Part shown: one piece after another, positions 1 to 41,347 of the stretch
Layout: each line of letters starts with the position of its first letter
Position numbering within the stretch: the stretch's first letter is position 1
Assembly (NCBI GenBank): GCA_963589675.1
Contig: CAVALL010000001.1
Coordinates: 1 to 49,283, forward strand
Reading direction: 5' to 3'
DNA: 49,283 nt
Origin: Alistipes onderdonkii
GTDB lineage: Bacteria; Bacillota_I; Bacilli_A; RFN20; CAG-288
Program-made: the position numbers and the translations under genes
Notes under the pieces: model-generated
The model's database searches: none
What the model was told of the DNA's origin: nothing
Seen by the model: only the letters and a program-made list of their open reading frames with translations

Positions 1-74
1 ATTTATGTTTGCTACATGAGCCGTGCAGTAGACTATTTTTCAGCTACTGCATTGAGATATTAAAGGAGCATATC

Positions 75-833
75 ATGAAAAAAGAAATCAATTCGAAGTC
101 GAAAAGAAAATGGATCATGGGTGGTCTTGCCGCCTTTGCCTCAGTTGCACTGTTAACAACTGGTTTTGCAGTATGGATCGTTGGATCTTCCAAAACTGAT
201 GACAGCAAAGACGTCAATGTCACTGTTGATACAGCTAACAACAAGAGCATTGTCTTCACTTGGAATGCAGGTGCTGATTCCGCCATTGAATTAAAGGAAG
301 CCAGTGCTGTCACTGATGGCAAGATTGTCAATGTTTCCAGCGCAGATGATGTCGCCACTAATCCATTGCAGATTTCCTATGCTGCATCTACCATCACCTT
401 TGGTACTTCTTATGACTTCAAATTCAAATCTATTCAGTTCTCTATTGAGGAACCGAAAGCAGAAGGAACAGATTATGCTTCTGTCAAAGCAGTTGGAAAT
501 AAATTGACCGGCGACTATGCTCGTAAAACTGGTGATTACACATATATTGCTGCCCCTAAAGCACTTAGCATTGCAAGTTTGAATCCTGTTGAAAGTGGAA
601 ACACTAAAACAATCACTCTTCCTGCTGGAACCCTAGATTTCTCTTGGGGAACATTCTTCGATAGCGAATCTCCTGCTACTTTCTACAATACAAAGTATGC
701 AAACGAAGATGATCAGACTAAGTTAGCTAAGGCTGCTGATGAGATCACAACCGAATTGACTGATATGTACAAGCAGCTCAATGGAAAGAAAATCAAATTG
801 GTTGCCACCTTATCTGAGACTGAAGTTGCCTAA
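75..833 (+). CDS. Secreted protein, family paralog A, with SipW-cognate-like N-terminal signal; function unknown
   Basis: ORF 9..833. AAGGAG at 63-68 lies 6 nt before ATG 75. The N-terminus is a basic stretch (KSKRKW), then a hydrophobic helix ending TTGFAVWIVGSS, then DVNVTVD. The C-terminal FSWGTFF..P motif is shared with the next ORF. Confidence 0.6.
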   Translation: MKKEINSKSKRKWIMGGLAAFASVALLTTGFAVWIVGSSKTDDSKDVNVTVDTANNKSIVFTWNAGADSAIELKEASAVTDGKIVNVSSADDVATNPLQISYAASTITFGTSYDFKFKSIQFSIEEPKAEGTDYASVKAVGNKLTGDYARKTGDYTYIAAPKALSIASLNPVESGNTKTITLPAGTLDFSWGTFFDSESPATFYNTKYANEDDQTKLAKAADEITTELTDMYKQLNGKKIKLVATLSETEVA

Positions 834-848
834 TCGGAGTATTCAATC

Positions 849-1619
849 ATGAACAAGTTCAATAAAGGCAAAACCATTGGAATCGTTGCTGCTTCTTTAG
901 CCGCTGTTTCTGTGTTTGGTATTGGCTTCTCTACATGGATTATCAATACTACTACAAATAAAGTAGAAACGTCTGATATTACCGTTGTGGTAGCTGATAC
1001 AAAGGATATTTCCGTTATCATCAGCAATGCAAAGGTAAGCGAGTCTGATAATTCTGTGAAATTTGATGCTGATGAAGAGAAGATGAATAAAGCAACTGAT
1101 CATTTGCTATCTTGCAGCTCTGGTGATAAGGAAGATTTATCTTTCACTCTTACCTATGATGTCACTGTCGGTACCGATGCATCTGCATGGCAGATTAAGG
1201 CTGCTATTGATGATGGCACTACTGGTACAAATGGCAAATTCGAAACTGCAGTCAACACAAGAAAATATATTGCTCTTCCTTCTACATTAGGAATCACTAA
1301 TGGTGTTGAATGCTTGAACCAAGCTAGCAAGACTGATACTGATACTGGATTGACAGTCACTGCATCAACCACATCTGGTGCAACAAACAAGACCTATTCT
1401 ATTAGTCAGACCTTCACATTCTCTTGGGGGCTTGCATTTGCTAATAAGAATCCAGTTGAAGTTACTGGCGCCGATGAAATCTATACTCAGGGCGCAACTG
1501 ATGGTACTACTACCACAACTGCTACTCTTGATAATTTGACCGCCAATACAAAGAAAATGAAGGAATTAGGATTAGGAACGTTCAAAGTCATCCTTTCTGT
1601 CGGTGCAGTCTCCAAATAA
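849..1619 (+). CDS. Secreted protein, family paralog B, with the same N-terminal signal motif; function unknown
   Basis: ORF 849..1619, 15 nt after the upstream stop. N-terminus is MNKFNKGK, a hydrophobic stretch ending FGIGFSTWIINTT, then DITVVVAD. FSWGLAF..NP near the C-terminus parallels paralog A, and the size is similar (256 aa). Confidence 0.6.
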   Translation: MNKFNKGKTIGIVAASLAAVSVFGIGFSTWIINTTTNKVETSDITVVVADTKDISVIISNAKVSESDNSVKFDADEEKMNKATDHLLSCSSGDKEDLSFTLTYDVTVGTDASAWQIKAAIDDGTTGTNGKFETAVNTRKYIALPSTLGITNGVECLNQASKTDTDTGLTVTASTTSGATNKTYSISQTFTFSWGLAFANKNPVEVTGADEIYTQGATDGTTTTTATLDNLTANTKKMKELGLGTFKVILSVGAVSK

Positions 1620-1640: not shown

Positions 1641-2753
1641 ATGACAACTGTTGAAATCATCACTTTATTCATCACAATCTTATGTCTCATCAGTTTCTGT
1701 GCTGTCTTTACTATTCTGTTCAATCATTATTACAAATCAAATATTGAATCGGTGTCCTCTGGCAAGGAGGACATCGATTTGATTGATAATGCAATCGATG
1801 AAGAAAAAGAAAAGAAGAGTAAAACAAAGAAGACATGGAAACTGGTAGGTAAGATTTTTTCGTATGTTCTATTAGGTGTAGTGTTCTCGTTCTTTGTTTT
1901 CTCACTTGTCTCTAGGATTCAAGGTAATACGATGCTCTTTGGTAATTCTACCATGGTAGTCATTGCATCAGGTTCTATGTCAGAGAGAAATAATAATACG
2001 ATCAAAGCACATCCGGAACTGACCAATCAGTTTGATACTTATGACATCATTGGTATCAGTAAGTATCAGAGTCAGGATGAGGTTGCTTTATATGATGTCA
2101 TCGCCTATAAGAACAAGAAGAACGTTACGATTGTTCATCGTATCGTGGAAGTGAATAAGGATGAGAAGACAGGTACTACCACTTATCTGACACAGGGAGA
2201 CTCAAATCTCTATTCTGATAATACAGGTGGCTCACAATATACTGGATATCTTACCTATGATAAAATCATCGGTAAGTATGATGGTAGGAGAATCAAAGGA
2301 TTAGGTATCTTCGTTATCTTCCTTCAGTCTTCTGCTGGTATTGTCACAGTGTTATCTGTTGTATATTGTCTATTTATGTATGACTATCTCTCCAACAAGT
2401 ATAAGAAAGCAATTGTAGAGAGAACGAATATGCTCGTGAATCTGATTGACTATGATCTCAGTCATGAGGATGCAGATGATGTAGTCTCTAACTATCATGA
2501 GACACTCTTATACAAGAACAAGCTATACACTTTCCAGGATGGTAAATTCATCTCGAAAGAGGATAGCGATACCGAAATCACGAAACTGAATGATCATATG
2601 GTATTTGTGAAACGTGAGAATGGTACAATCACTATTACAGTGACAGATACAAGAGACAACACATCTAAAGTTTATGAAAATGTTTCTGAAGAAGACTCTA
2701 AGGATTTAAGTAAATTCATTCCTGATGATAAATCGGAAGAGAAAGCTGAATGA
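1641..2753 (+). CDS. Signal peptidase I, SipW/archaeal-ER type (S26B), with extra N-terminal TM and about 130-aa charged C-terminal tail
   Basis: Catalytic-box motifs are present: ASGSMSE (Ser box), TIVHRIVEV (His box) and TQGDSNLYSDN (GDNN-like box). There are two N-terminal hydrophobic helices and one after the catalytic domain, then a long acidic/basic tail. Confidence 0.75.
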   Translation: MTTVEIITLFITILCLISFCAVFTILFNHYYKSNIESVSSGKEDIDLIDNAIDEEKEKKSKTKKTWKLVGKIFSYVLLGVVFSFFVFSLVSRIQGNTMLFGNSTMVVIASGSMSERNNNTIKAHPELTNQFDTYDIIGISKYQSQDEVALYDVIAYKNKKNVTIVHRIVEVNKDEKTGTTTYLTQGDSNLYSDNTGGSQYTGYLTYDKIIGKYDGRRIKGLGIFVIFLQSSAGIVTVLSVVYCLFMYDYLSNKYKKAIVERTNMLVNLIDYDLSHEDADDVVSNYHETLLYKNKLYTFQDGKFISKEDSDTEITKLNDHMVFVKRENGTITITVTDTRDNTSKVYENVSEEDSKDLSKFIPDDKSEEKAE

Positions 2754-2770
2754 TATTAGGAGGTAGGAAA

Positions 2771-4600
2771 ATGCTCAAGACTCATTTGACGAGAAAGAAT
2801 CTCATCGGCGTTGCCATGATGTTCTTCTACGGCCTTTCGGTGCTGATTGCTGGACTTGCAATCGACGGCAACAATCCGGTGTTTGCAAAGAACAATCCAA
2901 TCCAGAACTTGGCGGCATCGATGTTCAAGGTAAAGGATATCAATGGAATCACGACAAAAGGTGTTCCGGCAGGATCGGTTCAAGCCTATATCATATTGAT
3001 TCTCTTTGTCATCTATATTGTTCTTTGTACAGCAGCTATCATTTATGAAGTTAGACTTGCAAAGTACTATGATGAGAATCCCTTATCCTTTAAATGGTGG
3101 ATGGTCTATATCATCACATTCTTAGTCTGTGGTGGATTGTGGACTGGTATCTCTATGGTATCCCAGATTTCGGATAAGCCTTTTGGATACTATATCGCTA
3201 ACTCCTATCTATTCTTACTTGAATCCATTGTCTTTGGTTTCATTGTCTTTGTTGTCTTAGGCTCCATCATCTTCAATGTCTGTCTCCTTGTCGTCAATTT
3301 CAAGAATATCAATAAGCCGTTTAAGTTCTTCGATGATTCCGAAGAAGAACAGAAGGCTGAACAGGAAAAGGAAGAAGAGGAGAAGAGAGCATTAGAGCAA
3401 GGTCAGCTTGCTGAATCCTTCGGTGAAGGTGGTTCCACTAATGGTGGAACGGTCTCTGGAGGTGCTTCTACTGTTGGTACAGATGATTCCTCTCCTTTAA
3501 AGGAGAAGGAAAGAGTTTTCCCAGGTCTTTGCTCTATCGACTATATGAACAGTGCTCTTCCTGTCGATAACTTCGAAGACGACTTATCCTTGAGTGAAAT
3601 CTGTGTCCGTTTCCGTAACTATTTAGCTGATAAGGAAGGATTATACTTCTCTCCTATCTATATTGAAGAATTCATCTCTGGTCTTGCAGCTAGCCGCTTC
3701 ATCATCTTAGAGGGTCTATCCGGTACTGGTAAATCCTCTCTTGCCCGTTACTTCTCTGAATTCATTTCCGAGAAATCCTACTTTGAAGCAGTCCAGGCTA
3801 CCTGGAGAGACCGTACCTCAATCTTAGGTTACTACAACGACTTCTCTAAGACCTATAACGAGACTGAGTTCTTGAAGAGACTCTATGATGCTACATATAA
3901 GAAGAATCATATCAACATCATGGTCTTAGATGAACTCAACATCTCCCGTGTTGAATACTACTTTGCAGACTTCCTCTCTGTCCTTGAATATCCTCAGGAT
4001 GAATGGAAACTGAAGATCATGCAGTTCCCGTATGACTTCGATGCTCCAGAACATCTTGAAGACGGTGTCTTACAGATTCCGGAGAATACCTACTTCATCG
4101 GTACTGCCAATAAGGATGAATCCACCTACACCATCACTGACAAGGTCTATGACCGTGCTATCACAATCGACTTCGATGATAGAAATGAGCCGTTTGCTGT
4201 CTCGGGTGATAGCGATAAGATCTCCTTATCCTATGCACGATTACAGGAACTCTTCTCTGATGCTATCAATAATGAATCCAACCAGCTCTCTATGGACGAA
4301 TACAAGAAGTTCAAGACTCTTACTGACTTTACCTATGATATGTTTGATATCACCTTCGGTAACCGTATCATGAGACAGATTCAGCTCTTTGTTCCTGTCT
4401 TTGTCGCTTGCGGCGGTGAGAAGAATGACGCTCTTGACTTCATGTTTGCTAGAAAAGTCGTCAGCAAATTAGAGGGTAGATTCGAAGACTATGTCAAGGA
4501 AGGACTTATCGATCTGAAGGCTTTGATCGTCAAGACCTATGGAGAGAACAGCTTCCCCCAGACAAGTCATATGATTGATAAACTCATCCGTAAACTCTAA
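2771..4600 (+). CDS. Membrane-anchored McrB-like AAA+ NTPase (4-TM N-domain, low-complexity linker, McrB-type ATPase)
   Basis: ORF 2750..4600; AGGAGG at 2758-2763 favours ATG 2771. The first about 190 aa contain four hydrophobic helices. An acidic/Gly-Ser linker follows (EEEQKAEQEKEEEEKR..GGSTNGGTVSGG). ATPase motifs are Walker A GLSGTGKSS, Walker B IMVLDELN followed by ISRVEYYFADFLSVLE, and FIGTANKDEST. This is the pattern I recognise from McrB/COG1401 ATPases. Confidence 0.7.
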   Translation: MLKTHLTRKNLIGVAMMFFYGLSVLIAGLAIDGNNPVFAKNNPIQNLAASMFKVKDINGITTKGVPAGSVQAYIILILFVIYIVLCTAAIIYEVRLAKYYDENPLSFKWWMVYIITFLVCGGLWTGISMVSQISDKPFGYYIANSYLFLLESIVFGFIVFVVLGSIIFNVCLLVVNFKNINKPFKFFDDSEEEQKAEQEKEEEEKRALEQGQLAESFGEGGSTNGGTVSGGASTVGTDDSSPLKEKERVFPGLCSIDYMNSALPVDNFEDDLSLSEICVRFRNYLADKEGLYFSPIYIEEFISGLAASRFIILEGLSGTGKSSLARYFSEFISEKSYFEAVQATWRDRTSILGYYNDFSKTYNETEFLKRLYDATYKKNHINIMVLDELNISRVEYYFADFLSVLEYPQDEWKLKIMQFPYDFDAPEHLEDGVLQIPENTYFIGTANKDESTYTITDKVYDRAITIDFDDRNEPFAVSGDSDKISLSYARLQELFSDAINNESNQLSMDEYKKFKTLTDFTYDMFDITFGNRIMRQIQLFVPVFVACGGEKNDALDFMFARKVVSKLEGRFEDYVKEGLIDLKALIVKTYGENSFPQTSHMIDKLIRKL

Positions 4601-4605
4601 AGGAT

Positions 4606-5991
4606 ATGGCCGATAGCAAAGATTTTCTTGTTGATTTCACCGATAAAATCAAGAATGAGATAGGAAACAAGCCTATCGGTTTTTATCATGCCTTAGATAC
4701 TCTTACCTATTACGAACCCTATCATTTTGATGAGGAGAAGAACAAGTTAGATGATTTGAAAAAGGTATCGGATAAGATCTTATCGATCCTTTATCATCCT
4801 GCATTTCATGCAGAGACGAGTGAAGTTATCCTTCGAAGCGAATTATCCGGAAAACTATCTCATGAATCCTTCTCCGATACGATGCAGGATCCAAAGCTCT
4901 GGAAAGAGAAGAACAGTAGAATGGTTCCGGAGTATGTCCATACTGTGGAGACTGTTGATAGCATCGATATCTATGAGAATAGATTCATCTCTCTTCTCAT
5001 CGATGAGATCAATGATGATATCGATACTTCCTTAGATGATATGACTCCGATGGTGGAATCCTTCTCTGAACATTATCAGAGCAATCAGTTTACTTTCGGT
5101 ACCTATTCTCCTTTAAGAGACATGAGAAAGAAGTATTATCCCTATACTTCCTTTATCCTGAAAGGCAATGGTTCGAAAGAGGAACTCTATGCCACAGCGA
5201 AGAGAATCAAGAGAAGAATGAAGAATATGAGAGGAACAGAGTTCTATAAGATTACTTCAAAGCATGAGATCTCTCATTCTATAAGACCTACCAATATCCT
5301 GATTCACGATAAACTGTATTCCTACTGCTATCGCTATTATGTATCTCATTATCGCAGTAAGGATATGGAAGAGAGAAAGAAACAGATTCTCTATTTCAAT
5401 TACTTCTTTACCTCTTTCCTTCATCTTTTGAAGAAGAGAGAACTCATCAAGGAAGAGAATATGCCTATTCTTTCCATTGATAAGGAAGACATGGTCTCTT
5501 TCTCTTCCTTCTCTATTGAACATTATCCCTTTACTCTTACATTTAAAGAGGATAAGAAGAATGTAGCACTGATAGTCGATGTTACGCTTCACTATGATAA
5601 AAGGGATATCAGCTCTACTTACTATCTCTTATGCCGAGATAAGTACAGTGAGAAGAATGCCTCCTCTATTTGTTCTATTCGTGATGAGAACTTGGATAAG
5701 AGATTTATCCTCATCACTCTAAACAATATCTTAAAAGACTACAATTCCACTCTTACCTTCTCTTATCGAAGAGAGAAGAATGAGATGCTATTAGATGACC
5801 TATTATCTTCGATGACAATTCTCATCGATGCGAATAAGGAGTTCTATACTGGATTTTGTCCCGTATGCGGAAAGAATGAAATCCGCTTCGATGGAGAGAA
5901 ATATATCTGTCAGAACTGCCATAGTGAATACGTGATGGATAAGATTGATGATGATACCCTGTTATGGATTCAGTCTTATCGAAAGGAGTGA
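4606..5991 (+). CDS. McrC/DUF2357-like partner protein with C-terminal CxxC-x13-CxxC zinc ribbon (tentative)
   Basis: Starts 5 nt after the ATPase stop. The segment DSIDIYENRFISLLIDEI resembles the conserved ENR-containing segment of McrC-type partners (from memory). The C-terminus is CPVCGKNEIRFDGEKYICQNC. I could not see a clean PD-(D/E)xK motif; the closest is LIVDVTLHYDK. Confidence 0.45.
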   Translation: MADSKDFLVDFTDKIKNEIGNKPIGFYHALDTLTYYEPYHFDEEKNKLDDLKKVSDKILSILYHPAFHAETSEVILRSELSGKLSHESFSDTMQDPKLWKEKNSRMVPEYVHTVETVDSIDIYENRFISLLIDEINDDIDTSLDDMTPMVESFSEHYQSNQFTFGTYSPLRDMRKKYYPYTSFILKGNGSKEELYATAKRIKRRMKNMRGTEFYKITSKHEISHSIRPTNILIHDKLYSYCYRYYVSHYRSKDMEERKKQILYFNYFFTSFLHLLKKRELIKEENMPILSIDKEDMVSFSSFSIEHYPFTLTFKEDKKNVALIVDVTLHYDKRDISSTYYLLCRDKYSEKNASSICSIRDENLDKRFILITLNNILKDYNSTLTFSYRREKNEMLLDDLLSSMTILIDANKEFYTGFCPVCGKNEIRFDGEKYICQNCHSEYVMDKIDDDTLLWIQSYRKE

Positions 5992-5996
5992 AATAG

Positions 5997-6800
5997 ATGG
6001 AAAAGCAAAACAATACATTTTCTCCTTTCATGAAGAACAAGGAGAAGAAAGAAGAAATCAAAAGAGAAGTGATTCTCTCTGTCACTGATCTTCATAAATC
6101 CTATGGAAAGAAGGAAGTCTTAAAAGGAATCAATATGGAAGTCTATAAGGGTGAAGTATTTGGCTTCATCGGTAAGAACGGTGCCGGTAAATCGACAACG
6201 ATTGACTGCATCGTCGGACTAAAGGACTTCAACGAAGGCAAGATCATCTTAAACGGACACAACGTCAAAGAGAATCCAATCGATGCTAAGATGTCGTTAG
6301 GATATGTGCCAAGTGAACCTGTGACCTATGAAGTCATGACGGGATTAGAATATCTTCAGTTTGTCGCTTCCAGTTACAATATGTATCAGGAAGCATTCGA
6401 TAAGAATTACGAATTTTTGAAGAACAAGTTCATGATCTCAGATGCCGACTTAAACAGAAAGATCAGAGAATACTCTCATGGTATGAAACAGAAGGTCTGC
6501 CTTATGGCATCTCTCATTCATAATCCGACTATCTGGATACTGGATGAACCGACTGTCGGTTTGGATATCATCGTCTATCAGACGCTCATGGATATGCTAA
6601 AAGAGTTTGCGAAAAACGGTAAGACTGTCTTCATCACATCCCATAATATCGACTTAGTTTCCCGTGTCTGTAACCGCGTTGCTATCATCAACAACGGTGT
6701 CGTTGCTGAACTGATCGACTTCAATAAGGAACCATTGAAGAGAAGAAATCTCAGCGAAATCTTCTTCTCTACCTATGCTGTTGAAAAGGAAGACAAATAG
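5997..6800 (+). CDS. ABC transporter ATP-binding protein
   Basis: Walker A GKNGAGKST, signature-like YSHGMKQK, Walker B IWILDEPTVGLD and H-loop ITSHN. Starts 5 nt after the upstream stop. Confidence 0.9.
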   Translation: MEKQNNTFSPFMKNKEKKEEIKREVILSVTDLHKSYGKKEVLKGINMEVYKGEVFGFIGKNGAGKSTTIDCIVGLKDFNEGKIILNGHNVKENPIDAKMSLGYVPSEPVTYEVMTGLEYLQFVASSYNMYQEAFDKNYEFLKNKFMISDADLNRKIREYSHGMKQKVCLMASLIHNPTIWILDEPTVGLDIIVYQTLMDMLKEFAKNGKTVFITSHNIDLVSRVCNRVAIINNGVVAELIDFNKEPLKRRNLSEIFFSTYAVEKEDK

Positions 6801-6812
6801 AAAGGACATTCG

Positions 6813-8432
6813 ATGTTTTTAGAACTGCTTCGAAAAGAGTTCATCGAGAAGAAGAGTCAGGAGAAACAGAGCACTTCTATGGTTGTTCTCTCCTATCTTT
6901 TACGTGGAATCCTTCTTGCTCTTTTCATTGCACTCGAATGCTATATTGCAATCGCTTTGGATAAGAAGATTGTCCAGTATTCTAGTTATGGATCATTTGA
7001 TTTCCTTGTCCTCTTCCTCTTTGTGATGATGGGACTGAATCTGTTATTCACATTAGTCAAAGCGAGAAAATCAATCTTTGATCATAAGGATAGTTCCGTT
7101 GTCCTTCCTCTTCCCATCTCTCCATCGACACAGGTATTCAGCAAAGTTGTTTATCTTTATATCGAAGCGATACTCTTTGCACTATTTACAAGCACACCAC
7201 TTCTTATCTGCTATGGAGTGAGTAGACACTATATCCCATACTATTACATCTTCTCTATCCTTTATCCGATTTTCATCTCGATATTCTCCGTTGGCATCTC
7301 ACTTTTGTTATCCATTATCTACCAGCAGATTTACAAGATTATCAAGAAGAGTGATATCCTTCAGTTCATCATGGCATGTGTGGTTGTTGTCTCAGCCTGC
7401 TACTTCTATCAGTTTGTATTGAATCTGTTCTTAACTGCTTTGAATGACTCTTCTATCGGTGGTGTCTTCTCTTCTGACTTTGTCGATGGATTACATAAGG
7501 CAAGATACTATTTCCTTCCTGTCTATCATCTGATGGACTCTGTGATTGAGAAAGGACAGTTAGCCAGTGACATTCTGATATTCATCGGTGCCTCTCTTCT
7601 TTCTGCTATCTTAGGTGTTTCTACGACTAGCCTTTGCTATTTCCACGAGATCAAGCTTGGTGAACACTCAGAGTCTAAGGCAAAGAAGAACAAGAATACA
7701 AAGTTACTTTCTCCATTCAAGGCATTAGTCAAGAAGGAACTGGATTTGTTATTCAAGGATGAGACCAATCTCTTTTCCTATACTTCCTTATTGATTTTAT
7801 GTCCGTTCCTTACCTTTGCTGTCATCTCTTCTTTGAATTCCATCATCTATGATAATCTTCGTTTCTATGCTTCCTATTTCCCAGAGTTAGTCTCTGGAAT
7901 TAATTTAGTTTTGATCCTTCTTTTCTCCGGTGTCATCAATGCGTCGGCATCCTTATCGATGTCGAGAGAGGGAAAGTCTCTTATCATCGTCAAGTATCTT
8001 CCTGTTTCCCCTTTGAAACAGATTTTAGCGAAGATTATCATTCCGATCTTCTTCTCTTTCCTCTCCTTATTTGTCACGGAGATTGTATTGATCTCTACAG
8101 GTATCATTACTCTTCCTGTCTTCTTCTCTTCTTTCTTTATCGGCACTCTTCTTCTTGTCTTTTCCAATGTCTTTGGTATCTACTGTGATATGCATGACAA
8201 AGAAGGAGAGAACAGAAAGGTAAAGCTCTCTGTCATCAATGACATCATTCCTCTTGTCCTTCCTCTTATCATCTTTGCTCTTTTCTTTGTCTTCTCTGTC
8301 TATGTCAGGATCCCGTCATGGTCCTTATATCTGATTGCATCTCTATTCTCTCTTCTTGTCTTATCTCCTTCCTTCTTTGCTTTGAAGAAGAGATATCAGA
8401 AAGCATTCGTGAAAATGGAGGTGAGCAATTAG
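6813..8432 (+). CDS. Polytopic membrane protein, putative ABC exporter permease partner
   Basis: 539 aa and almost entirely hydrophobic helices (at least 10). It sits immediately downstream of the ABC ATPase. There are no other recognisable motifs. Confidence 0.6.
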   Translation: MFLELLRKEFIEKKSQEKQSTSMVVLSYLLRGILLALFIALECYIAIALDKKIVQYSSYGSFDFLVLFLFVMMGLNLLFTLVKARKSIFDHKDSSVVLPLPISPSTQVFSKVVYLYIEAILFALFTSTPLLICYGVSRHYIPYYYIFSILYPIFISIFSVGISLLLSIIYQQIYKIIKKSDILQFIMACVVVVSACYFYQFVLNLFLTALNDSSIGGVFSSDFVDGLHKARYYFLPVYHLMDSVIEKGQLASDILIFIGASLLSAILGVSTTSLCYFHEIKLGEHSESKAKKNKNTKLLSPFKALVKKELDLLFKDETNLFSYTSLLILCPFLTFAVISSLNSIIYDNLRFYASYFPELVSGINLVLILLFSGVINASASLSMSREGKSLIIVKYLPVSPLKQILAKIIIPIFFSFLSLFVTEIVLISTGIITLPVFFSSFFIGTLLLVFSNVFGIYCDMHDKEGENRKVKLSVINDIIPLVLPLIIFALFFVFSVYVRIPSWSLYLIASLFSLLVLSPSFFALKKRYQKAFVKMEVSN

Positions 8433-8433
8433 T

Positions 8434-10854
8434 ATGAAAAAGCGTACTTTAGCATTCCTTCTCATCATTCCTTTCATCATCTCCTTACTCACTTTTGTGT
8501 CCATCAAAATCCTCGACAATCAGGTTGCTGTCGATATTTTAGGTATCGAATGGAACTATCAGGAGAACGAAGGATTCCAGATCGATGAGAAAGGATATGA
8601 ATTGAAGGCTACTCCAATCGTGGATCCCAATCTCATCCTTGCTAATGGAAATAATCTTGTCTGGTCCACCAAGAAGGTGAATGACAGTGATGATGAATAC
8701 GCAAAGGTAGAAGAGGAGAACGGAAAATATTATCTCTATGCCTTAAAGCCAGGTGAAGTAGAAGTCATCTGCTCCAATGAAAGAGGAAGCAAATCCAAGC
8801 ATTTCCTAGCTACAATCTTCGAAGATGGTGCCATGGTCATCAATCCAAAGAGAAAAGGAAGCGGAAGCTCTGTCACTTCCAATAAGTATTACGGATTGTA
8901 TGACTATGAGAACGAAGACAAGGTCAAGGCTAGCTTTGATCTTGTGACGACTGCCTATTATAGCGATAGGGGTACTAGCGTTAAGAATATCCTTGTCGAT
9001 TGCTCTAGCAATATCACATACGAGAATGGAACAGTATCTGTTCATTCTGCGGGTGATAGTTATGTAACCTTGGAAGAGCCGGATTATCATTACCGTGCCA
9101 CTTACACATTCAAGGTCATTGACGGTGTCAATGTCTACTCTTACTCTGATTTATTGTTAGGTACAAACAAGTCTCAAAGTGGTGAGAATATCGTCATGCA
9201 GGTCAATTTAGAGTCGTTGAAGAATACCTATACTTACGATAGTACAACTGGAAAATATACGGACGAAAAGTTATCAACTAGCAAAGACAATACAGAGCTC
9301 TTTGGTAACTTCGACTTCACTAGTCAGACATTCTCCTTTGATCAGGAATATTACACCTTTGAGACGACCTATGATTCTACCTATATCGATCAATACAATA
9401 GGGAGAAATATACGGATGTCTCTAAGGATGTCATTGCTGGCATCCATTTGAAGAAGGGATTATACGGAAACGGCTTTACTATCAACATGAACGGATTATG
9501 CTATCCGAATCATGGTGAGATCGATAAATATACGGGAAAGAGAGTGCCGAAGAAAAAGAGTGAAGCCAAGAAGGGTGAAGCCTATGACTACTTCTATGGT
9601 CCGCTTCCCTTTGTTGCTGTCGGTGATATGGTATCATTCCCATTAGTCACTGCCTTAGGACAGGATAACTGTGGAATCTATATCGATGATGACAATGTCA
9701 TTATTGATGATGTGAAGTTATCCAATGTTGATGAAGTCGATAATCTCTATAATCTCTCTTATACAGGAAGCATTGTCGATGTGAAAGGCAAGAATGCGAC
9801 AATCCGTAATTCTGTCCTCTCCAACGGCAAAGTCTGTGTAAGAGCATATGACAGCGATAATCTACTTATCGATAACTGCATCTTGAAGAACTCTGGTGAA
9901 TTCACACTCCTATTAGGAAGTGATAAGAAGGATAGTTATGATGCATCTAGAAGAGTGCAGGATTACGGTATTGATAAGTCCTATTCTGAATTCTTCGATG
10001 ACTTGGATGAGAGTAAACAGGATACCGCAAATGGTGTCCTAAATGCCTTCTTGAATGCGACGATGGCTGGTACCTTGAAAGAGGGAGACTATAAGACACA
10101 ATTAGAACTGATTCAGAAGTATCTTGATACGGATACAAATAGCGGATATGCAGCGAATATCACAGTCAACAATACATTCTTCGGACGCTCTGGTGTCTTC
10201 TCAATAGCCTTTGAATCGATGTTCAATGGACCTCTCCTCTATGGCGGTATCCCGACGATGCTGACAAAGCTATTAGGCAGTTATCTCAATGCTCCTCTTC
10301 CGGAAAAGGTCGGTGGAACAAGTAGACCGGTCCATCTCACATTGAAGGGTGATACAAGATTCTATGATTGGAAGGACATCGATAGTATCGATGTATCTGC
10401 GCTCATTGAAGAGAATATCTCCCGTACTCTGAATCAGATGGGATACGGAAACAAGAACGTTACGATCGATGATATCTTCCCAATGAAATCAGCTCTGAAG
10501 AAAGAGTCTCAGACAAAAGGTCTTATCTATACCAAAGATGATAAGAGCTTTGTCAATACTGCCATTGCCTACTATGGTGGTGGCATGAATAACTCCGCTA
10601 TCGATATTGAAAGTGATACGACCTATAACAGCTATAGCGATGAAACGATTGTCTCATTGCTTGATGAGACGATTGAGAACAATAAGGGCGGTGGATTATC
10701 ATCACTTTTTGTCGATTGTGTCATTGTCACAATCGGTACCCATCCATTCCGGTTCATCACCAATGGAAGTGAAGAGAAGACAAGCCCTAGATTATTCGAT
10801 CAGGTTCCCGCGATTGACGGATTGAAGAAACATGTTCAGGAGGTAACAAAATGA
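8434..10854 (+). CDS. Signal-anchored exoprotein with Ig-like segment and right-handed beta-helix-like repeats
   Basis: N-terminus is MKKRTLAFLLIIPFIISLLTFV. The segment LKPGEVEVICSNERG is Big_2-like. The stretch NATIRNSVLSNGKVCVRAYDSDNLLIDNCILKNSGEF is typical of parallel beta-helix (pectate-lyase-fold) repeats. Confidence 0.5.
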   Translation: MKKRTLAFLLIIPFIISLLTFVSIKILDNQVAVDILGIEWNYQENEGFQIDEKGYELKATPIVDPNLILANGNNLVWSTKKVNDSDDEYAKVEEENGKYYLYALKPGEVEVICSNERGSKSKHFLATIFEDGAMVINPKRKGSGSSVTSNKYYGLYDYENEDKVKASFDLVTTAYYSDRGTSVKNILVDCSSNITYENGTVSVHSAGDSYVTLEEPDYHYRATYTFKVIDGVNVYSYSDLLLGTNKSQSGENIVMQVNLESLKNTYTYDSTTGKYTDEKLSTSKDNTELFGNFDFTSQTFSFDQEYYTFETTYDSTYIDQYNREKYTDVSKDVIAGIHLKKGLYGNGFTINMNGLCYPNHGEIDKYTGKRVPKKKSEAKKGEAYDYFYGPLPFVAVGDMVSFPLVTALGQDNCGIYIDDDNVIIDDVKLSNVDEVDNLYNLSYTGSIVDVKGKNATIRNSVLSNGKVCVRAYDSDNLLIDNCILKNSGEFTLLLGSDKKDSYDASRRVQDYGIDKSYSEFFDDLDESKQDTANGVLNAFLNATMAGTLKEGDYKTQLELIQKYLDTDTNSGYAANITVNNTFFGRSGVFSIAFESMFNGPLLYGGIPTMLTKLLGSYLNAPLPEKVGGTSRPVHLTLKGDTRFYDWKDIDSIDVSALIEENISRTLNQMGYGNKNVTIDDIFPMKSALKKESQTKGLIYTKDDKSFVNTAIAYYGGGMNNSAIDIESDTTYNSYSDETIVSLLDETIENNKGGGLSSLFVDCVIVTIGTHPFRFITNGSEEKTSPRLFDQVPAIDGLKKHVQEVTK

Positions 10855-11963
10855 AAAAAAGATTATTCAAAAGGATGATGCTGCTTGTAGCAGCTTTGAC
10901 TCTATCTTCACCTTTAGCTTCCTGCGCCTTCTTTGATACAGGAAGCGGAACACAGATCAAGGATGTCATCACAACCTATGATGATTCAACCGGTAATACG
11001 ATTGTCACTATCACCTTCACAAGTGATGATACTTCTCCGGTCTCTTTCAGCATTCCTCGTGGTATCTCGGGTAAAGATGGAGTATCCATCAAGAATGTCA
11101 CATCCCGTATCTCTGACGATGGTAATAGCATTGAACTCACTATCACCTATACCGATAGTAGTGTTGAAAACACGGTTATCTCTGTTCCTGTCTTACAGGG
11201 AAGAGGTGTCAAGGAAGTGTTGGTCGATAAGGATGAGGATGGAAATCCTACCATTCAGTTCATCTATAACGATAATACCAAAAGCTCTGTCATTACGATT
11301 CCAAGCGGTAAAGACGGTAACGGAATTGAGAGCTTTGAAGTCTCTGATCCCGATTCAAGCGGTAGAATGTCTGTTGTCATCAAGTTTACAGATGGCACAT
11401 CTACTACCTTTGAGATCAAGAACGGTGTCTCTGTCATGAATATCACCTACAATGATGAAAAGTCTGATTCAACTCATTATGTTCTGACTGTCACTTATTC
11501 AGATGGATACAGTGAAGATATCACCTTGGATAGACCTCGCTCGAACCATTGGTATACAGGTACAACGGCACCGGAGAAGGATGCTGTTGCCTCTTCCGAG
11601 GCAACAGAAGGTGACTTCTATCTCAACCGTGTCAATGGATACGTCTATCAGAAGGAGAGCAATGGAAACTGGACATTCCTCTTTGGTATGAAAGCAGATT
11701 CTTCCTCAGAAGAAAAAGTCTATCATACGGTCTTCTTTGATCCTGGTCTTGGTAAGATCAATGGTAATTCCAGTATCCTGATGTCTACTGTATTAGAGGG
11801 TAAGACAATGGATTTATCCGCTATTCCGACTCCTACCTATGATGATCATACCTTCTTAGGCTGGTATACGGATTTAGAGAATGTCAATGCTGGTAAGTTT
11901 ACGGATTTGACTCCTGTTATGTCTGATTTGAAGTTATATGCGAAATATCAAGCAAATAACTAA
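10851..11963 (+). CDS. Lipoprotein with tandem about 50-aa repeats, fibre-tip-like segment and C-terminal Listeria-Bacteroides (Flg_new) repeat
   Basis: ATGA start/stop overlap with the upstream gene. Lipobox is LASC. The repeats follow the pattern I-K-x-V..T-I-T-F/Y-T..I-P-x-G-x-x-GKDG (GISGKDGVSI, SGKDGNGI). GDFYLNRVNGYVYQKESNGNW resembles phage tail-fibre/collagen-like tip motifs. FLGWYTD...LYAKY is the Flg_new signature. Confidence 0.65.
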   Translation: MKKRLFKRMMLLVAALTLSSPLASCAFFDTGSGTQIKDVITTYDDSTGNTIVTITFTSDDTSPVSFSIPRGISGKDGVSIKNVTSRISDDGNSIELTITYTDSSVENTVISVPVLQGRGVKEVLVDKDEDGNPTIQFIYNDNTKSSVITIPSGKDGNGIESFEVSDPDSSGRMSVVIKFTDGTSTTFEIKNGVSVMNITYNDEKSDSTHYVLTVTYSDGYSEDITLDRPRSNHWYTGTTAPEKDAVASSEATEGDFYLNRVNGYVYQKESNGNWTFLFGMKADSSSEEKVYHTVFFDPGLGKINGNSSILMSTVLEGKTMDLSAIPTPTYDDHTFLGWYTDLENVNAGKFTDLTPVMSDLKLYAKYQANN

Positions 11964-12019
11964 ATCCGATATGGTAAAATAGTCACATTATATCTATACA
12001 TGGAAAGGAGGATAGCAAG

Positions 12020-12764
12020 ATGAAACGTAGGAAGAAAAACATCACAATCATTCAACCTTATCAGATACCATCTATCTGCCTCCTTTTGTCTGTCTCCTCA
12101 CTCTTTGGTATCGGGTTTGCAACCTGGTATGATACGGGGGGGGTTGAGAACTGAAGCAGAAAGCGTTACTGTCACTGTAGGAGAAGTTGTTTTAAACGAT
12201 ATTAGCCTAAAAGACTTTGGTTTTGATGTAGTTAGTGGAAGTACTACAAGCATTACAACATCAAAGCGATTAAGCGATGATGATGAATCAGTGACAGACA
12301 CTTTATTGAATTCTCATTGCGTATCTGTTAAAGCAACTGTTGATACCAATATTATGGGTAAAGCGGATTATTACGATGATCTTTATTTATCCATTTCTTT
12401 TGCGTATGAAGGTTATAGCAGTACGACAAATAACATCATTGAATCTCTAACTCTTTATCCAGAGAACTACGTTGGATATTCTTTTGATGGTATTAAGTCA
12501 AGTAAGACGACTCAAATGAAGAACGGAAAAACGACACTGTTTTATTTTCCAATGAAATCCCAAAATGATATTTCATTATCTTCCGTTGCTTTGATAGATA
12601 CAACATATCCAAAAACGAATATTCATAGTACAACTGGATTTGATTATAAAGTTCCGATCGTTTTTGAATTCACAATTGATGAGGATACATTGAATTCTGA
12701 ATTGGCGAATTCTTCTGTTAAATACAGTGTTACTTTTTCATTAGCTGAAGGAACAGCTAATTGA
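12020..12764 (+). pseudogene. Third member of the about 250-aa secreted family, frame-interrupted at a G8 tract (phase-variable gene or pseudogene)
   Basis: AAGGAGGA at 12005-12012 lies 7 nt before ATG 12020. The first frame reads MKRRKKNITIIQPYQIPSICLLLSVSSLFGIGFATWYDTGGVEN and stops at 12152-12154. With one fewer G it continues as ..DTGGLRTEAESVTVTVGEVV.. into ORF 12105..12764, giving about 247 aa. Confidence 0.75.
12136..12143 (+). repeat. Homopolymeric G8 tract at the frameshift point
   Basis: Read directly: gatacGGGGGGGGttgag. It is the only long G/C homopolymer I noticed in this AT-rich window. Confidence 0.95.
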
Positions 12765-12775
12765 GGAAACTTGTA

Positions 12776-15472
12776 ATGAAAAAGATTTCTTTGATTGCAA
12801 AACTATCCTGCGCTCTTGGAATGTTATTGACTATTTTTGGCGTCATTGGTTTTTCTGATTATATTGCAGACACAATAAATACTTCAGATAAGACTAGTGT
12901 CAAAGACAATGCCGTTGATGATGGTGAAATGGTTACGTTGAGTTTCAAGTATGCGGTTTGTACAGGTTCGAAGATAGTCAAGCAAGATGAGACTACGGAA
13001 ATATTATCAAATACAATTAGTTCGACGGATAGAAAGAGCGATGCTGCAAAAACAAAATATTATGCTTTGTTTGACTGCTTAGAAAAGTATGTTGATGCAG
13101 ATGAATGCCCTGAACGTGAGACTACATTTAAGAAAGGAGAAACGTTTACTTATACTGGGATCAATGAATATTCTGGATATTATGTCATTCTTAATGTTAC
13201 TCAAAAAACATACCATAGTTCCTACACCTTGGCTGGGAAAACTTATGATAATTATTATGGTGCATATACTATATCCGTACAAAAATACGATATTGTTACT
13301 AGTTATGACTATTATGACTATGCGATCAAAGATAAGGTGGAAGTGAATAAAAATACAAAATTTACACTCACCGATTTGTATGGGATTATATCATTGGCCA
13401 CTGATGATAATTACAAGTTGGTGGGACTTGCTGAAGAGACGACAGAAGGCAAGCCAAGTGGAACGATAGTTTCATTGCCGTTGCAAGTTAGTGCTTCCGG
13501 CACTTATTACGCACTTTTCAATAAGACGAGTATGGATGGGAAATATGTTTTGGGAAAGACAATCTCTGGTTATACTACGAAAGGGACGTATACATTTAAT
13601 GCTCAGGTTGCTCAAAATGAATTTAATCTGACCAATGATGCTTCTTATTATGCGACAGATAAAGTTGTATTTCTCGGTGATAATTCTTCGACGATAACAA
13701 CATCAGGTGGACAAACTGCCGTTGGGACAAAAATCTCATCAGATGTAACAGTTAATTTTGGTTTGAATAGTGGCGATGTTTTTGTGAAAACATCCTCATC
13801 GATAAATACTAACGATCTTGAACCTGAAGATACTGAACATTCAAGACAATATACGGTTTGCCTGCAATCTGACTTGTATGTTTATGGAACTCTTGCTATT
13901 GGTGCAAACTGCGGTACAACGAACAACACCTATTATGAGGGACATATTTGTAATGAGTATGTGGCTTTAGATTTGAATGGTCACAATATCTATTTGGAAA
14001 ATGGCACTCTTAATATATATGGCTTAATTAAAAATTCAAAAGATGACGGAGAAATAATTTCATATGGCGGAGAAATTAATACTCTAGCAGTAATTTATGA
14101 TTATCGCGGAGGCAATGCAACGACATCGCTTGTCAATCAGAAGGTTATGCCGTTTCAGATTTATTCATTGCCTTATTTTAGGTGCAAAGCTCGTCTTTGC
14201 TATTCATCGGATTATGGGTGGACGCAGTTTAATGCTGTTTGTTATGCGACTGTCGCTAAACTCTTAGGTGCGCCAGTACCTGTAACTATTAAGATCAATT
14301 TTATTGGCGGTTTGGATGATGAGGTTCTATTCAAAATAGCTGAACAGACAGACTCTTATGTTGAAATCGAAGGCTATAAAAATGATAAAGTCACTGAAAA
14401 TAAAGAAATCTCTAGTGATGAGGTTAAACTGTGTTTGTCTCAAAGATTAAAAATCACTTTTCGTAATTGCTCTGTTAAGATGTCAAATATTGAGATGGAC
14501 ATTGCTTCAGGTTACAAAGTGAATACAAAGGACTACAATTTCCCTGTCTCTAGCTTCTTTGATATTTTGCTGGTAAATACTGATTTGACTTTCTCACAGT
14601 CACTAAAGATGATGCCAGGAATGTCCTTTATCGCTGATAAAGATAGCAATGTTATCCTTTCTTATGATTCCACTAACAAGAAATCAGCACAGATATCTGT
14701 TCTTGGAGAGAATGCCTATTATTATGATTCTGAAAAAGAAACGATGGTAAAGAATGATCTTATTGCAGAAAATCAATTAACATTCACTGCATCATTCTTT
14801 AAATCCGAATCATTGTGGAAATATTATAGTGGTAGTCGTTTTAAGATTTATGGAACACTTGTATTTCAAGGTGGTAATGCTGATATAAGAGAATATCTAT
14901 TAGCTGGGCAAATGGATTTCAATCGTGTTGCATATTCTTCGGATGGAACAACATCCAATCTCGAATATATAGAGTTTTCTGAAAATGAAAATCCATTTGC
15001 AAAGCTAATGGAAAAACATAGTGATGTAAAGATACTCACATATGGATATGATTATTTGCTTGGCAGTTCAGACTTAAAGGCAGTCATCAAAGGATATTCT
15101 CGTCCATTAGTTTCTTATGGTAAAGGTTATTATACAAATGGTAGTTCCGCTGATGCTAAAGTCGGAGACTATAGCTTCAGAACAGGAATATTCAAAGTCA
15201 GTGATACTGAGATGTATTACTTCAACATTGGTGAAACCTTTACCTTAAGTGATAATTCAACCTGCTCATTAGAACCTTGTACCTATGATGAAGCAGAGCA
15301 TACTTTTACGGATACAAAAACAAATACAAAGTATGCATACTTTGCTTCTTCCTATTATCCGTATACAAATACAGATGGAACAATAACTCTGAATGTGACT
15401 AGATCTAATTCATCAACGACATCCGTTACTGTTGTATATAATTCGACATTGGATCGTTGGCTGAGGAAATAG
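12776..15472 (+). CDS. Large secreted protein of unknown function with related N-terminal signal motif
   Basis: ORF 12761..15472; GAGGAA lies upstream of ATG 12776. N-terminus is MKKISLIAKLSCALGMLLTIFGVIGFSDYIADT. The sequence is rich in Thr/Ser/Asn/Tyr, with beta-rich repeats such as LDLNGHNIYLENGTLNIYGLI. Confidence 0.6.
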   Translation: MKKISLIAKLSCALGMLLTIFGVIGFSDYIADTINTSDKTSVKDNAVDDGEMVTLSFKYAVCTGSKIVKQDETTEILSNTISSTDRKSDAAKTKYYALFDCLEKYVDADECPERETTFKKGETFTYTGINEYSGYYVILNVTQKTYHSSYTLAGKTYDNYYGAYTISVQKYDIVTSYDYYDYAIKDKVEVNKNTKFTLTDLYGIISLATDDNYKLVGLAEETTEGKPSGTIVSLPLQVSASGTYYALFNKTSMDGKYVLGKTISGYTTKGTYTFNAQVAQNEFNLTNDASYYATDKVVFLGDNSSTITTSGGQTAVGTKISSDVTVNFGLNSGDVFVKTSSSINTNDLEPEDTEHSRQYTVCLQSDLYVYGTLAIGANCGTTNNTYYEGHICNEYVALDLNGHNIYLENGTLNIYGLIKNSKDDGEIISYGGEINTLAVIYDYRGGNATTSLVNQKVMPFQIYSLPYFRCKARLCYSSDYGWTQFNAVCYATVAKLLGAPVPVTIKINFIGGLDDEVLFKIAEQTDSYVEIEGYKNDKVTENKEISSDEVKLCLSQRLKITFRNCSVKMSNIEMDIASGYKVNTKDYNFPVSSFFDILLVNTDLTFSQSLKMMPGMSFIADKDSNVILSYDSTNKKSAQISVLGENAYYYDSEKETMVKNDLIAENQLTFTASFFKSESLWKYYSGSRFKIYGTLVFQGGNADIREYLLAGQMDFNRVAYSSDGTTSNLEYIEFSENENPFAKLMEKHSDVKILTYGYDYLLGSSDLKAVIKGYSRPLVSYGKGYYTNGSSADAKVGDYSFRTGIFKVSDTEMYYFNIGETFTLSDNSTCSLEPCTYDEAEHTFTDTKTNTKYAYFASSYYPYTNTDGTITLNVTRSNSSTTSVTVVYNSTLDRWLRK

Positions 15473-15474
15473 CG

Positions 15475-16200
15475 ATGTTACCAAGTATATGGAAGATACC
15501 ATCTTTGATATTCTTTTGGGTGATTGGTATCATTGTTAGTGTCGTTTATTATGTGCTGACATCTAAGAAATATCAGAGGAAATGGTACATTTCTCTCCTA
15601 TTAGGTTTTGTAATGATTATCCTTGAAACATTTGCAGCTAAGATTATGTTTCTTATTGAAAATCCATCATCTATTAAGGACGGTATTTCATGGAAAGGCG
15701 GATATTCTCTTTTTGGCGTGTTTTTCTTCTGTCCCTTGTTTTTATTGCTATTATCTTGGATACTGAAAATTCATTATTTGAACCTGATGGATTTCCTTGT
15801 TCCAGGTATTTTAATTGAACTATCACTTTATCGTATCGGTTGTATGTGTGCAGGCTGTTGCTATGGTATAGAGGTGGGATGGGGAATTACAAATGGAACA
15901 ATGAATGGATTATTCCCTGTTCAACCAATAGAAGTAGGATTGGATCTTATTACATTCTTATTGATTCATATCCTAATGACTAAGGATAAGTTAAGAAGAG
16001 GAGAAGCTTTCTATATAACCTATATCTCTTATGGTCTTATCCGTTTCACTATGGAATTCCTAAGACATAGAACAAATGTAGTAGGTATATTATCAGCCAG
16101 TCATTTCTATGCTCTTGCTATTCTGATATTTGGAACTGTAATGTTGATCTATTCAAGAACGCATAAAAAGAAAGAAAGGGATGAGGCATCACATCTTTAA
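15475..16200 (+). CDS. Lgt-family (prolipoprotein diacylglyceryl transferase-like) membrane protein
   Basis: ORF 15457..16200; ATG 15475 lies 2 nt after the upstream stop with GAGGAA upstream. It is polytopic. Motifs SWKGGYSLFG, YRIGCMCAGCCYG and FPVQPIEVGLDL match conserved Lgt blocks (W-GG, GR-G..G, P-Q-YE) as I remember them. Confidence 0.55.
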   Translation: MLPSIWKIPSLIFFWVIGIIVSVVYYVLTSKKYQRKWYISLLLGFVMIILETFAAKIMFLIENPSSIKDGISWKGGYSLFGVFFFCPLFLLLLSWILKIHYLNLMDFLVPGILIELSLYRIGCMCAGCCYGIEVGWGITNGTMNGLFPVQPIEVGLDLITFLLIHILMTKDKLRRGEAFYITYISYGLIRFTMEFLRHRTNVVGILSASHFYALAILIFGTVMLIYSRTHKKKERDEASHL

Positions 16201-29665: not shown

Positions 29666-29694
29666 TGTACATTCATGTACATATATGCTATAAT
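29666..29694 (+). promoter_or_regulatory. Candidate transposase promoter (TGTACA-17 nt-TATAAT)
   Basis: -35-like TGTACA at 29666-29671, a 17-nt spacer and TATAAT at 29689-29694. GGAGGTG lies before ATG 29717. Confidence 0.35.
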
Positions 29695-29716
29695 AGAATA
29701 TACCGGAGGTGCATCC

Positions 29717-40091: not shown

Positions 40092-41347
40092 GCCTCCTCA
40101 ATTTCGACTTTGATTTCCTTCTTTCCCTGAATGAGGGATTTCGGAAGGACGATCTTTTCCATTTCAGAAGGAATAATCTTCAGTTTCTCTACTTTCTTGA
40201 TGACTTCGCCATCGGCAGAGACGATGACACGGCTGCGATTGAAAGGATGACGGACACGGAAGGAGAATTCAAAGTTCTCATCTCCGTTATAGGCAACTTT
40301 CTGCGGGCAGAGGTAAGAGACACCATTTCCAACAACGGAAGTTGCATAATCGGATTCAATCTCACCTTTTTGGATATAGGCGGCAGCATTCTTACCGGCC
40401 TTTTCACCTTCCTGAGAGACATAGTCGACAAGGTCATGAACCTGAAGGACGTTACCACAGGCAAAGATGCCTTCCACGCTGGTTTCAAGGTTATCTTTGA
40501 CAACGGCGCCCTTGGTTCTCTGATCCAATTCGACGTTGGCCTTCTTGGAAAGTTCATTCTCAGGAATCAAACCGACAGAGAGAAGGAGGGTGTCACAGTC
40601 AAATGTGATCTCGGTTCCTGGAATCGGTCTATTCTTCTCATCAACTTTGGAGATGACGACCTGTTTGACACGGCGATGTTCCTCATCAGCAACAATATCC
40701 GTGACGGTATGAGAGAGATAAAGCGGAATATTGAAATCGTTAAGGCACTGGACGATGTTACGGTTCAGACCATTGGAATAGGGGCAAAGCTCGACATCAG
40801 CAAGGACAGTGGCACCCTCAAGCGTCATACGTCTTGCCATGATCAAACCGATATCACCAGATCCTAATATGACGACTCTCTTACCGACAAGGTATCCGTC
40901 GATGTTGCAATACTTCTGAGCGGCACCAGCTGTATAGACACCGGCGACACGATCACCAGGAGTGGAGATAGCGCCACGGCTTCTTTCTCTGCAACCCATG
41001 GCAAGAACGATGGCTTTCGCAGAGATCTGCTCTAAGCCTTTCTCAGAGGAAAGGACGGTTACGACCTTATCTTCAGAGATGTCGATTGCCATCGTCTTGA
41101 TGCGGACAGAGACACTAGTCTCTAAGACCATCTTCTCATAACGTCCTGCATATTCCGGACCGGTCAGCTCTTCTTTGAAACGATGAAGTCCGAATCCGTT
41201 GTGGATGCACTGATTCAAGATGCCGCCAAGGGTATCATCTCTTTCGATGATGAGGATATCCTTGATTCCACTCTGATAGGCTCCATATGCGGCAGCAAGT
41301 CCAGCCGGACCACCGCCGATGATGACTAAATCATGCTGTTCTTTCAT
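40088..41347 (-). CDS. NAD(P)/FAD-dependent pyridine-nucleotide-disulfide-type oxidoreductase
   Basis: Dinucleotide folds IIGGGPAGLAAA and VVILGSGDIGLIMA, with a C-terminal ACGNV motif. Confidence 0.8.
   Translation of the reverse strand: MKEQHDLVIIGGGPAGLAAAYGAYQSGIKDILIIERDDTLGGILNQCIHNGFGLHRFKEELTGPEYAGRYEKMVLETSVSVRIKTMAIDISEDKVVTVLSSEKGLEQISAKAIVLAMGCRERSRGAISTPGDRVAGVYTAGAAQKYCNIDGYLVGKRVVILGSGDIGLIMARRMTLEGATVLADVELCPYSNGLNRNIVQCLNDFNIPLYLSHTVTDIVADEEHRRVKQVVISKVDEKNRPIPGTEITFDCDTLLLSVGLIPENELSKKANVELDQRTKGAVVKDNLETSVEGIFACGNVLQVHDLVDYVSQEGEKAGKNAAAYIQKGEIESDYATSVVGNGVSYLCPQKVAYNGDENFEFSFRVRHPFNRSRVIVSADGEVIKKVEKLKIIPSEMEKIVLPKSLIQGKKEIKVEIEEA

Follow-up and report, generated by a model that had tools for sequence, protein, structure and literature searches.

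The window, that is the whole 49,283-nt stretch of DNA analysed here, has a low GC content of about 40%; its genetic code is the standard one, with TGA as a stop and open reading frames that are intact under translation table 11. The third gene of a co-directional run of five (8434..10854, 10851..11963, 12020..12764, 12776..15472 and 15475..16200) is split by a homopolymer of eight G directly behind its predicted export leader, and two further genes with the same type of leader lie at the beginning of the window, next to a signal peptidase homolog (Table 1). No terminator-like site was detected on the + strand between 10800 and 16400. Upstream of this run, the peptidase homolog and an ABC transporter (5997..8432) flank a McrBC-like pair, composed of an AAA_5 ATPase with N-terminal membrane segments (2750..4600) and a DUF2357/Zn-ribbon protein (4606..5991). 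The window contains no rRNA gene. Together, the IS1634-family transposase and the type 2 glycerol-3-phosphate oxidase suggest that the lineage is Mollicutes-like or Bacilli-like. Several related loci (L009-L014) come from MAGs labelled Bacteroides uniformis, Paludibacteraceae, Lachnospiraceae, Oscillospiraceae or simply 'bacterium', and the submitter taxonomy of these 'cleanbin' MAGs seems unreliable.

Table 1. Features of the window that bear on the split gene, its neighbourhood and the host lineage.
Feature	Coordinates	Strand	Remarks
Two leader-sharing genes	72..833, 849..1619	+	..TGFAVWI.. / ..GIGFSTWI.., then xVxVxV
SipW-like (archaeal/ER-type) signal peptidase I homolog	1641..2753	+	Candidate processing enzyme for the shared leader
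806-aa protein, right-handed beta-helix region	8434..10854	+	Pfam Beta_helix E 5.3e-5, below gathering score; syntenic in related loci
370-aa lipoprotein-like protein, Listeria-Bacteroides repeat	10851..11963	+	Pfam Flg_new E 2.8e-8; syntenic in most related loci
Shine-Dalgarno AGGAGG	12006..12011	+	8 nt 5' of ATG 12020; read from the sequence
Frame-0 5' gene part, 44-aa OFF product	12020..12154	+	Identical product on record (NCBI and Logan assemblies)
G8 homopolymer, putative hypermutable tract (site A)	12136..12143	+	Codons 40-42 of the ORF
Gene body in +1 frame, LRTEAESVTVTV...	12144..12764	+	Predicted beta-rich secreted/surface domain; TGA 12762-12764
898-aa protein, same leader type (..GVIGFSDYI..)	12776..15472	+	Own Shine-Dalgarno GAGG at 12763-12766
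lgt, prolipoprotein diacylglyceryl transferase	15475..16200	+	Pfam LGT E 7.6e-23; last gene of the co-directional run
IS1634-family transposase	29675-31492		E 1.3e-75; in the only segment of the window with ~50% GC
Type 2 (Mycoplasma-type) glycerol-3-phosphate oxidase	41344..42807

The sequence-only reading of this region had described a G8 run at 12136-12143 behind a Shine-Dalgarno-led ATG at 12020, a stop at 12152-12154 and a +1 frame open over 12105..12764, and all of these coordinates were correct when read again. The ORF starting at ATG 12020 encodes MKRRKKNITIIQPYQIPSICLLLSVSSLFGIGFATWYDTGG, where a basic n-region, a hydrophobic core and the stretch GIGFATW-YDT are followed by the tract-encoded Gly-Gly and then by VEN-stop. 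At the DNA level, frame 0 before the tract reads ...GIGFATWYDTGG, then GGGGGGGG, and the VEN-TGA stop comes 9 nt 3' of the tract. The +1 frame is already open from 5' of the tract, continues with GGLRTEAESVTVTVGE... directly after it and ends at the TGA of 12762-12764. Removal of one G from the window allele gives a protein of 247 aa (G7) and addition of two G one of 248 aa (G10), whereas G8 and G11 lead to products of 44-45 aa and G9 to one of 53 aa, with a stop 33 nt 3' of the tract. In the in-frame (ON) alleles the tract encodes two or three Gly directly behind the leader motif. The AGGAGG Shine-Dalgarno sequence is conserved in L001, L002, L003 and L015-L019, according to the leader DNA alignment.

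The restored protein, as well as the two leader-sharing proteins of 72..833 and 849..1619, showed no match to any Pfam or NCBIfam family at E <= 0.1. The family is narrow, with 27 representatives among 1.84 billion proteins in a full-library HMM search, and its body carries conserved motifs, among them YPENYxGY and LDSTYP. The intact ortholog P0003 was modelled with AF2 from a 13-sequence alignment; the model is of low confidence (pLDDT 59.5) and has a helix at the N-terminus, with a beta-rich domain behind it. Fold assignment by Foldseek against the PDB was discarded, as the matches were at chance level (best E 8.5e-3, TM < 0.3), and sequence and profile searches of the PDB retrieved nothing (profile search at E <= 10). 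The gene had been considered the third member of a family with two intact paralogs in the window. This holds for the N-terminal leader module, common to these proteins and consisting of a basic n-region, a hydrophobic core, the motif G-x-G-F-(A/S)-x-W, a polar linker and an xVxVTV strand, but not for the bodies: the likeness to the proteins of 72..833 and 849..1619 is limited to the first ~50 residues, and the bodies are not detectably related. The peptidase homolog, which sits ~9 kb upstream of the split gene, matches two NCBIfam models below their curated cut-offs (SipW, E 2e-11, 43.8 bits, cut-off 190; sigpep_I_arch, E 1.3e-10, 41.3 bits, cut-off 51.85). Searches for a SipW-cognate signal and for TasA-camelysin membership gave no NCBIfam or Pfam match at E <= 0.1 and no PDB profile match.

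The tract is beyond chance expectation, and the earlier claim that a G8 run is improbable in this DNA was confirmed. It is the sole G or C run of at least 6 in the 49,283 nt, and base composition predicts about 0.07-0.12 such runs of at least G8 per window. Among the Gly codons of 28 window ORFs, GGG is used least (15 of 856, 1.8%), and none of the 49 Gly-Gly dipeptides encoded by window ORFs elsewhere than at the tract uses GGGGGG. Across 89 kb of related loci, G/C runs of at least 7 are confined to the leader of this gene.

With the G7-restored protein as the query, a protein search retrieved 13 cluster representatives, which fall into two groups, namely intact 246-aa orthologs (P0002, P0003) and N-terminally 'truncated' calls. 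The latter begin at an out-of-frame ATG just 5' of the tract (MTRGGS... in P0001, MIRGGGS... in P0005). The DNA of relatives was collected from the contigs of the representatives, from the members of their 90%-identity clusters and from a GTDB species genome scan; a scan of JGI metagenomes with the family alignment found no relatives. The tract lengths obtained (Table 2) all derive from short-read metagenome assemblies (MAG or Logan contigs), where homopolymer length can be miscalled.

Table 2. Tract length and reading state of alleles in the window and in related loci (site B is described in the text).
Alleles	Site	Tract	State	Basis or remarks
Window, L001, L017	A	G8	OFF	Leader DNA alignment
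L016	A	G9	OFF, other frame, 53-aa product	Leader DNA alignment
L015	A	G10	ON, intact 248 aa	Leader DNA alignment
L002	A	G11	OFF	Leader DNA alignment
L019, L011	A	G10	ON	Leader DNA alignment
L012	A	G6	ON	Leader DNA alignment
L014	A	C + G10	OFF	Leader DNA alignment
L018 (895-903)	A	G8, following T absent	ON	Contig coverage only ~3x
P0041/P0024		G8-type	OFF	Protein N-termini, 90%-identity clusters
P0035, P0039, P0019, P0026, P0022		G9-type	OFF	Protein N-termini, 90%-identity clusters
P0025			ON	Protein N-terminus, 90%-identity cluster
P0028/P0021			OFF	Protein N-termini, 90%-identity clusters
L005 (2715-2721), L006 (646-652)	B	G7	OFF	
L010 (2957-2964), L020 (1540-1547)	B	G8	ON	

The comparison of tract length among relatives, proposed by the sequence-only reading as a check, revealed G8 to G11 in close relatives and G6 to G11 at site A in the wider clade, with ON alleles and both OFF frames. 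At the DNA level, the flanking genes of L001, L015, L016 and L017 share 93-97% identity with those of the window, and L002, a mosaic, is ~87% identical overall. The tract-bearing alleles (n = 22) comprise 8 that are ON, 8 that are OFF and need the loss of one nucleotide, and 6 that are OFF and need the gain of one; the 8/22 in the ON state are close to the one-third expected under randomised phases. ON and OFF alleles are found within the same 90%-identity clusters. The orthologs L003 and L007 (ACAGGTTCG, ACAGGCTTA) have no tract and yet are intact, with 246 aa. The exact ON forms of the window allele (G7 or G10) are absent from a collection of 15 billion proteins. As for L018, the missing T after the tract restores the frame, and either a compensating deletion or an assembly error is possible at ~3x coverage.

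A second poly-G site was found in a sister clade. This site B is separate from site A and lies ~70 nt upstream of it, before the hydrophobic core, where it is again present in OFF and ON forms (Table 2). The distant members P0047, P0055, P0058 and P0066 show 'GGG' at the site-B position, as read from the proteins alone.

The body behind the tract is constrained. None of the 16 alleles analysed has a stop within its 180/183 codons, and dN/dS (Nei-Gojobori) ranges from 0.12 to 0.27. The same method gave dS 0.296, dN 0.040 and dN/dS 0.13 between the window and L001, both of which are OFF.

Our results suggest, with a probability of roughly 0.8, that 12020..12764 is a translational phase-variable (contingency) gene with a slipped-strand poly-G switch. 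The hypermutable tract would gain or lose Gs by slipped-strand mispairing during replication. At G7 or G10 the window allele would fuse the leader to a beta-rich body of ~205 residues (ON), and at G8, G11 or G9 translation would run into one of the two early stops (OFF). The window would thereby represent an OFF state, in which a 44-aa leader peptide is made and the body is untranslated but intact, and the short Gly stretch behind the leader would evidently tolerate either number of Gly. The accepted in-silico (PhasomeIt) criteria for phase variation consider repeats of at least 7 G/C, take the longest of the three frames as ON and look for between-strain variation (PMC6321876). At this locus, a repeat of that class lies inside the reading frame (G8), the product is full-length at one repeat number and truncated at the neighbouring ones (247/248 vs 44-45/53 aa), the length differs among close strains with both ON and OFF states (G8, G9 and G10 in the 93-97% identical loci), and the downstream coding sequence is intact and constrained in OFF alleles. 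The ON/OFF switch by slipped-strand mispairing that had been claimed for this gene is thus supported by the length polymorphism, by the presence of both OFF frames and by the constrained body.

Three alternatives must be weighed against this phase-variable gene, two of which, an assembly indel and a pseudogene, had been raised beforehand. It is very unlikely that the tract is a sequencing or assembly indel and that the window strain has an ordinary intact gene with a true length of G7 or G10. In short-read assemblies, to which all the data belong, indel errors are indeed most frequent at homopolymers, and a Logan contig of run SRR13434611 (L021, positions 1317-1336) breaks 13 nt after the tract, where read quality may be poor. 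Nevertheless, this contig matches the G8 of the window and its flanks exactly, so the identical length was obtained by two different assemblers. G8 is also found in three other strains and G9 or G11 in others, and the error would therefore have to recur across samples and in both wrong frames. Even with a wrong G8 call in the window, the length polymorphism of the locus as a whole stands. The end of the L021 contig was also considered as a sign of length heterogeneity and rejected, because its position is unlike that of a k=31 graph branch for a length variant. The same run contains the tract-less allele L004, which indicates that two related strains or species share this sample.

Recoding is likewise very unlikely. 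Under this alternative, RNA polymerase would slip on the G run, or ribosomes would shift by +1 there, and the 'OFF' alleles would yield full-length protein at a set ratio. Transcriptional slippage can occur on long homopolymers, eight OFF alleles would all be corrected by -1 nt, and a degree of leaky expression in the OFF state is plausible. However, in-frame alleles (G6, G10 and tract-less) coexist with OFF alleles in the opposite frame (G9, six cases), and the coexistence of ON alleles with both wrong frames speaks against a single conserved recoding event. Moreover, the codons flanking the tract vary (TTG, TCG, TCA), and the search for a stable RNA structure 3' of the tract found none (z = +0.35). 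The combination that marks a programmed frameshift or transcriptional slippage, namely a conserved need for the shift, a slippery site and a stimulator, is not present here. A bias towards one OFF frame was considered as a hint of recoding and disappeared with more alleles (8 vs 6).

Finally, it is hardly tenable that the gene was permanently knocked out at a mutation-prone run and is now decaying as a fixed pseudogene: although 14 of the 22 tract-bearing alleles are out of frame and the tract-less L013, with an in-frame TAA in its body, shows that gene loss is possible, no OFF allele has a second lesion in the 180/183-codon body, the two OFF alleles compared above keep a dN/dS of 0.13 at a dS of 0.30, ON alleles share 90%-identity clusters with OFF alleles and the tract persists across lineages with saturated synonymous sites, so that the open body and the purifying selection between OFF alleles disfavour decay. 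The TAA of L013 (541-543, GY*STSNN) falls in the conserved body and could be a nonsense allele or an assembly variant.

Returning to the phase-variable gene, we infer that it switches reversibly and at high frequency within a clonal population. Its product would be a secreted or surface component processed via the GF(A/S)xW leader, the SipW-like peptidase (1641..2753) may be the enzyme involved, and switching may vary the cell surface, for example against the host or phages. The next two genes start 11 nt and 2 nt behind the upstream stops, as had been pointed out (12776 after 12764, and 15475 after 15470-15472). The OFF state leaves ~620 nt of mRNA untranslated before the next start, and a polar effect on the downstream genes is therefore conceivable; the gene at 12776..15472 has its own Shine-Dalgarno sequence (Table 1).

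The sequences around the tract diverge abruptly between relatives. Between the window and L002, identity is 92-100% up to 12197 and only 49-68% from about 12290 on. This mosaic breakpoint (12200-12290) falls within the phase-variable gene, and the body of L002 belongs to another allele class (P0005/P0013 type). Against L017, the identity is 94-100% up to about 12920, inside the gene for the 898-aa protein, and 53-72% beyond. The drop at ~12920 is equally abrupt against L016 and extends, for both loci, through at least 14250, so this segment is hypervariable and apparently recombining. Both genes would thus combine conserved leaders with exchangeable, highly divergent cassettes, an arrangement that fits a surface locus under diversifying selection.

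The leader-sharing proteins might form a common SipW-processed surface structure. We regard as rather unlikely the more specific proposal that the genes at 72..833, 849..1619, 12020..12764 and 12776..15472, together with the SipW-like peptidase, would constitute an undescribed SipW-processed donor-strand surface fibre of a Mollicutes-like lineage, in which the poly-G gene would encode a phase-variable minor or tip subunit and the recombining hypervariable cassettes of this gene and its neighbour would add antigenic variation. If this fibre existed, poly-G tracts would have been recruited at two separate leader positions across the family.

Slipped-strand contingency loci are best known from a few cultured pathogens. 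The locus described here would be a clean example from uncultured low-GC MAGs, supported by comparative data only. In this lineage, the phase-variable gene and its hypervariable neighbour would then be where fluctuating selection acts most strongly on the cell surface, and would be a natural first target for studying interactions with host or phages. Frameshifted 'pseudogenes' at homopolymers of MAGs should accordingly be neither discarded nor silently 'corrected'. The mechanism itself is a textbook one, so the locus adds no new principle but an annotation and a candidate for such a system, in a protein family that is uncharacterised and of narrow distribution.

Three known systems can be compared with this locus. 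In the SipW-dependent matrix and fibre proteins TasA, TapA and CalY, the signal is SipW-cognate and a donor strand is present at the N-terminus (PMC9674648, PMC10151520). As in these systems, otherwise unrelated secreted proteins share a leader, here G-x-G-F-(A/S)-x-W, which is reminiscent of the GGGTWA of TasA; a short beta-strand (xVxVTV) follows the leader, and an archaeal-type signal peptidase I homolog is encoded nearby. Unlike them, the proteins of the window have no HMM match to the SipW-cognate signal, TasA or camelysin and no fold or sequence match to TasA-like structures, and the peptidase scores below both cut-offs. Phase variation is not known for TasA.

The surface lipoproteins of Mollicutes phase-vary via SSRs (Vlp, Vsa and P78-type coding-region homopolymers). 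The window resembles the Vlp/Vsa systems in its low GC, its Mycoplasma-like markers and the association of a variable, putative surface component with hypervariable neighbouring sequence. It differs from them in that TGA is a stop and in that the leader has no lipobox Cys, the product not being a lipoprotein. The tract is also a coding poly-G, in contrast to the poly-A or poly-GA tracts that lie in promoters of Mollicutes.

The poly-G/C loci of Campylobacter jejuni, Neisseria, Haemophilus and Helicobacter share with this locus a G/C homopolymer of at least 7 in the 5' coding region of a surface-related gene (PMC6321876). As in Campylobacter- and Neisseria-type loci, a change of one nucleotide truncates the product, the length differs among close strains with both ON and OFF states, and the tract is strongly over-represented relative to composition. 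Unlike those loci, this one belongs to an uncultured low-GC host and an uncharacterised family, and is known here through sequence comparison. It also has one tract in 49 kb, with no sign of a large phasome. Finally, it is distinguished from the Campylobacter- and Neisseria-type loci by the position of its tract, precisely at the junction of the leader and the mature protein, and by the second, independent site in the sister clade.
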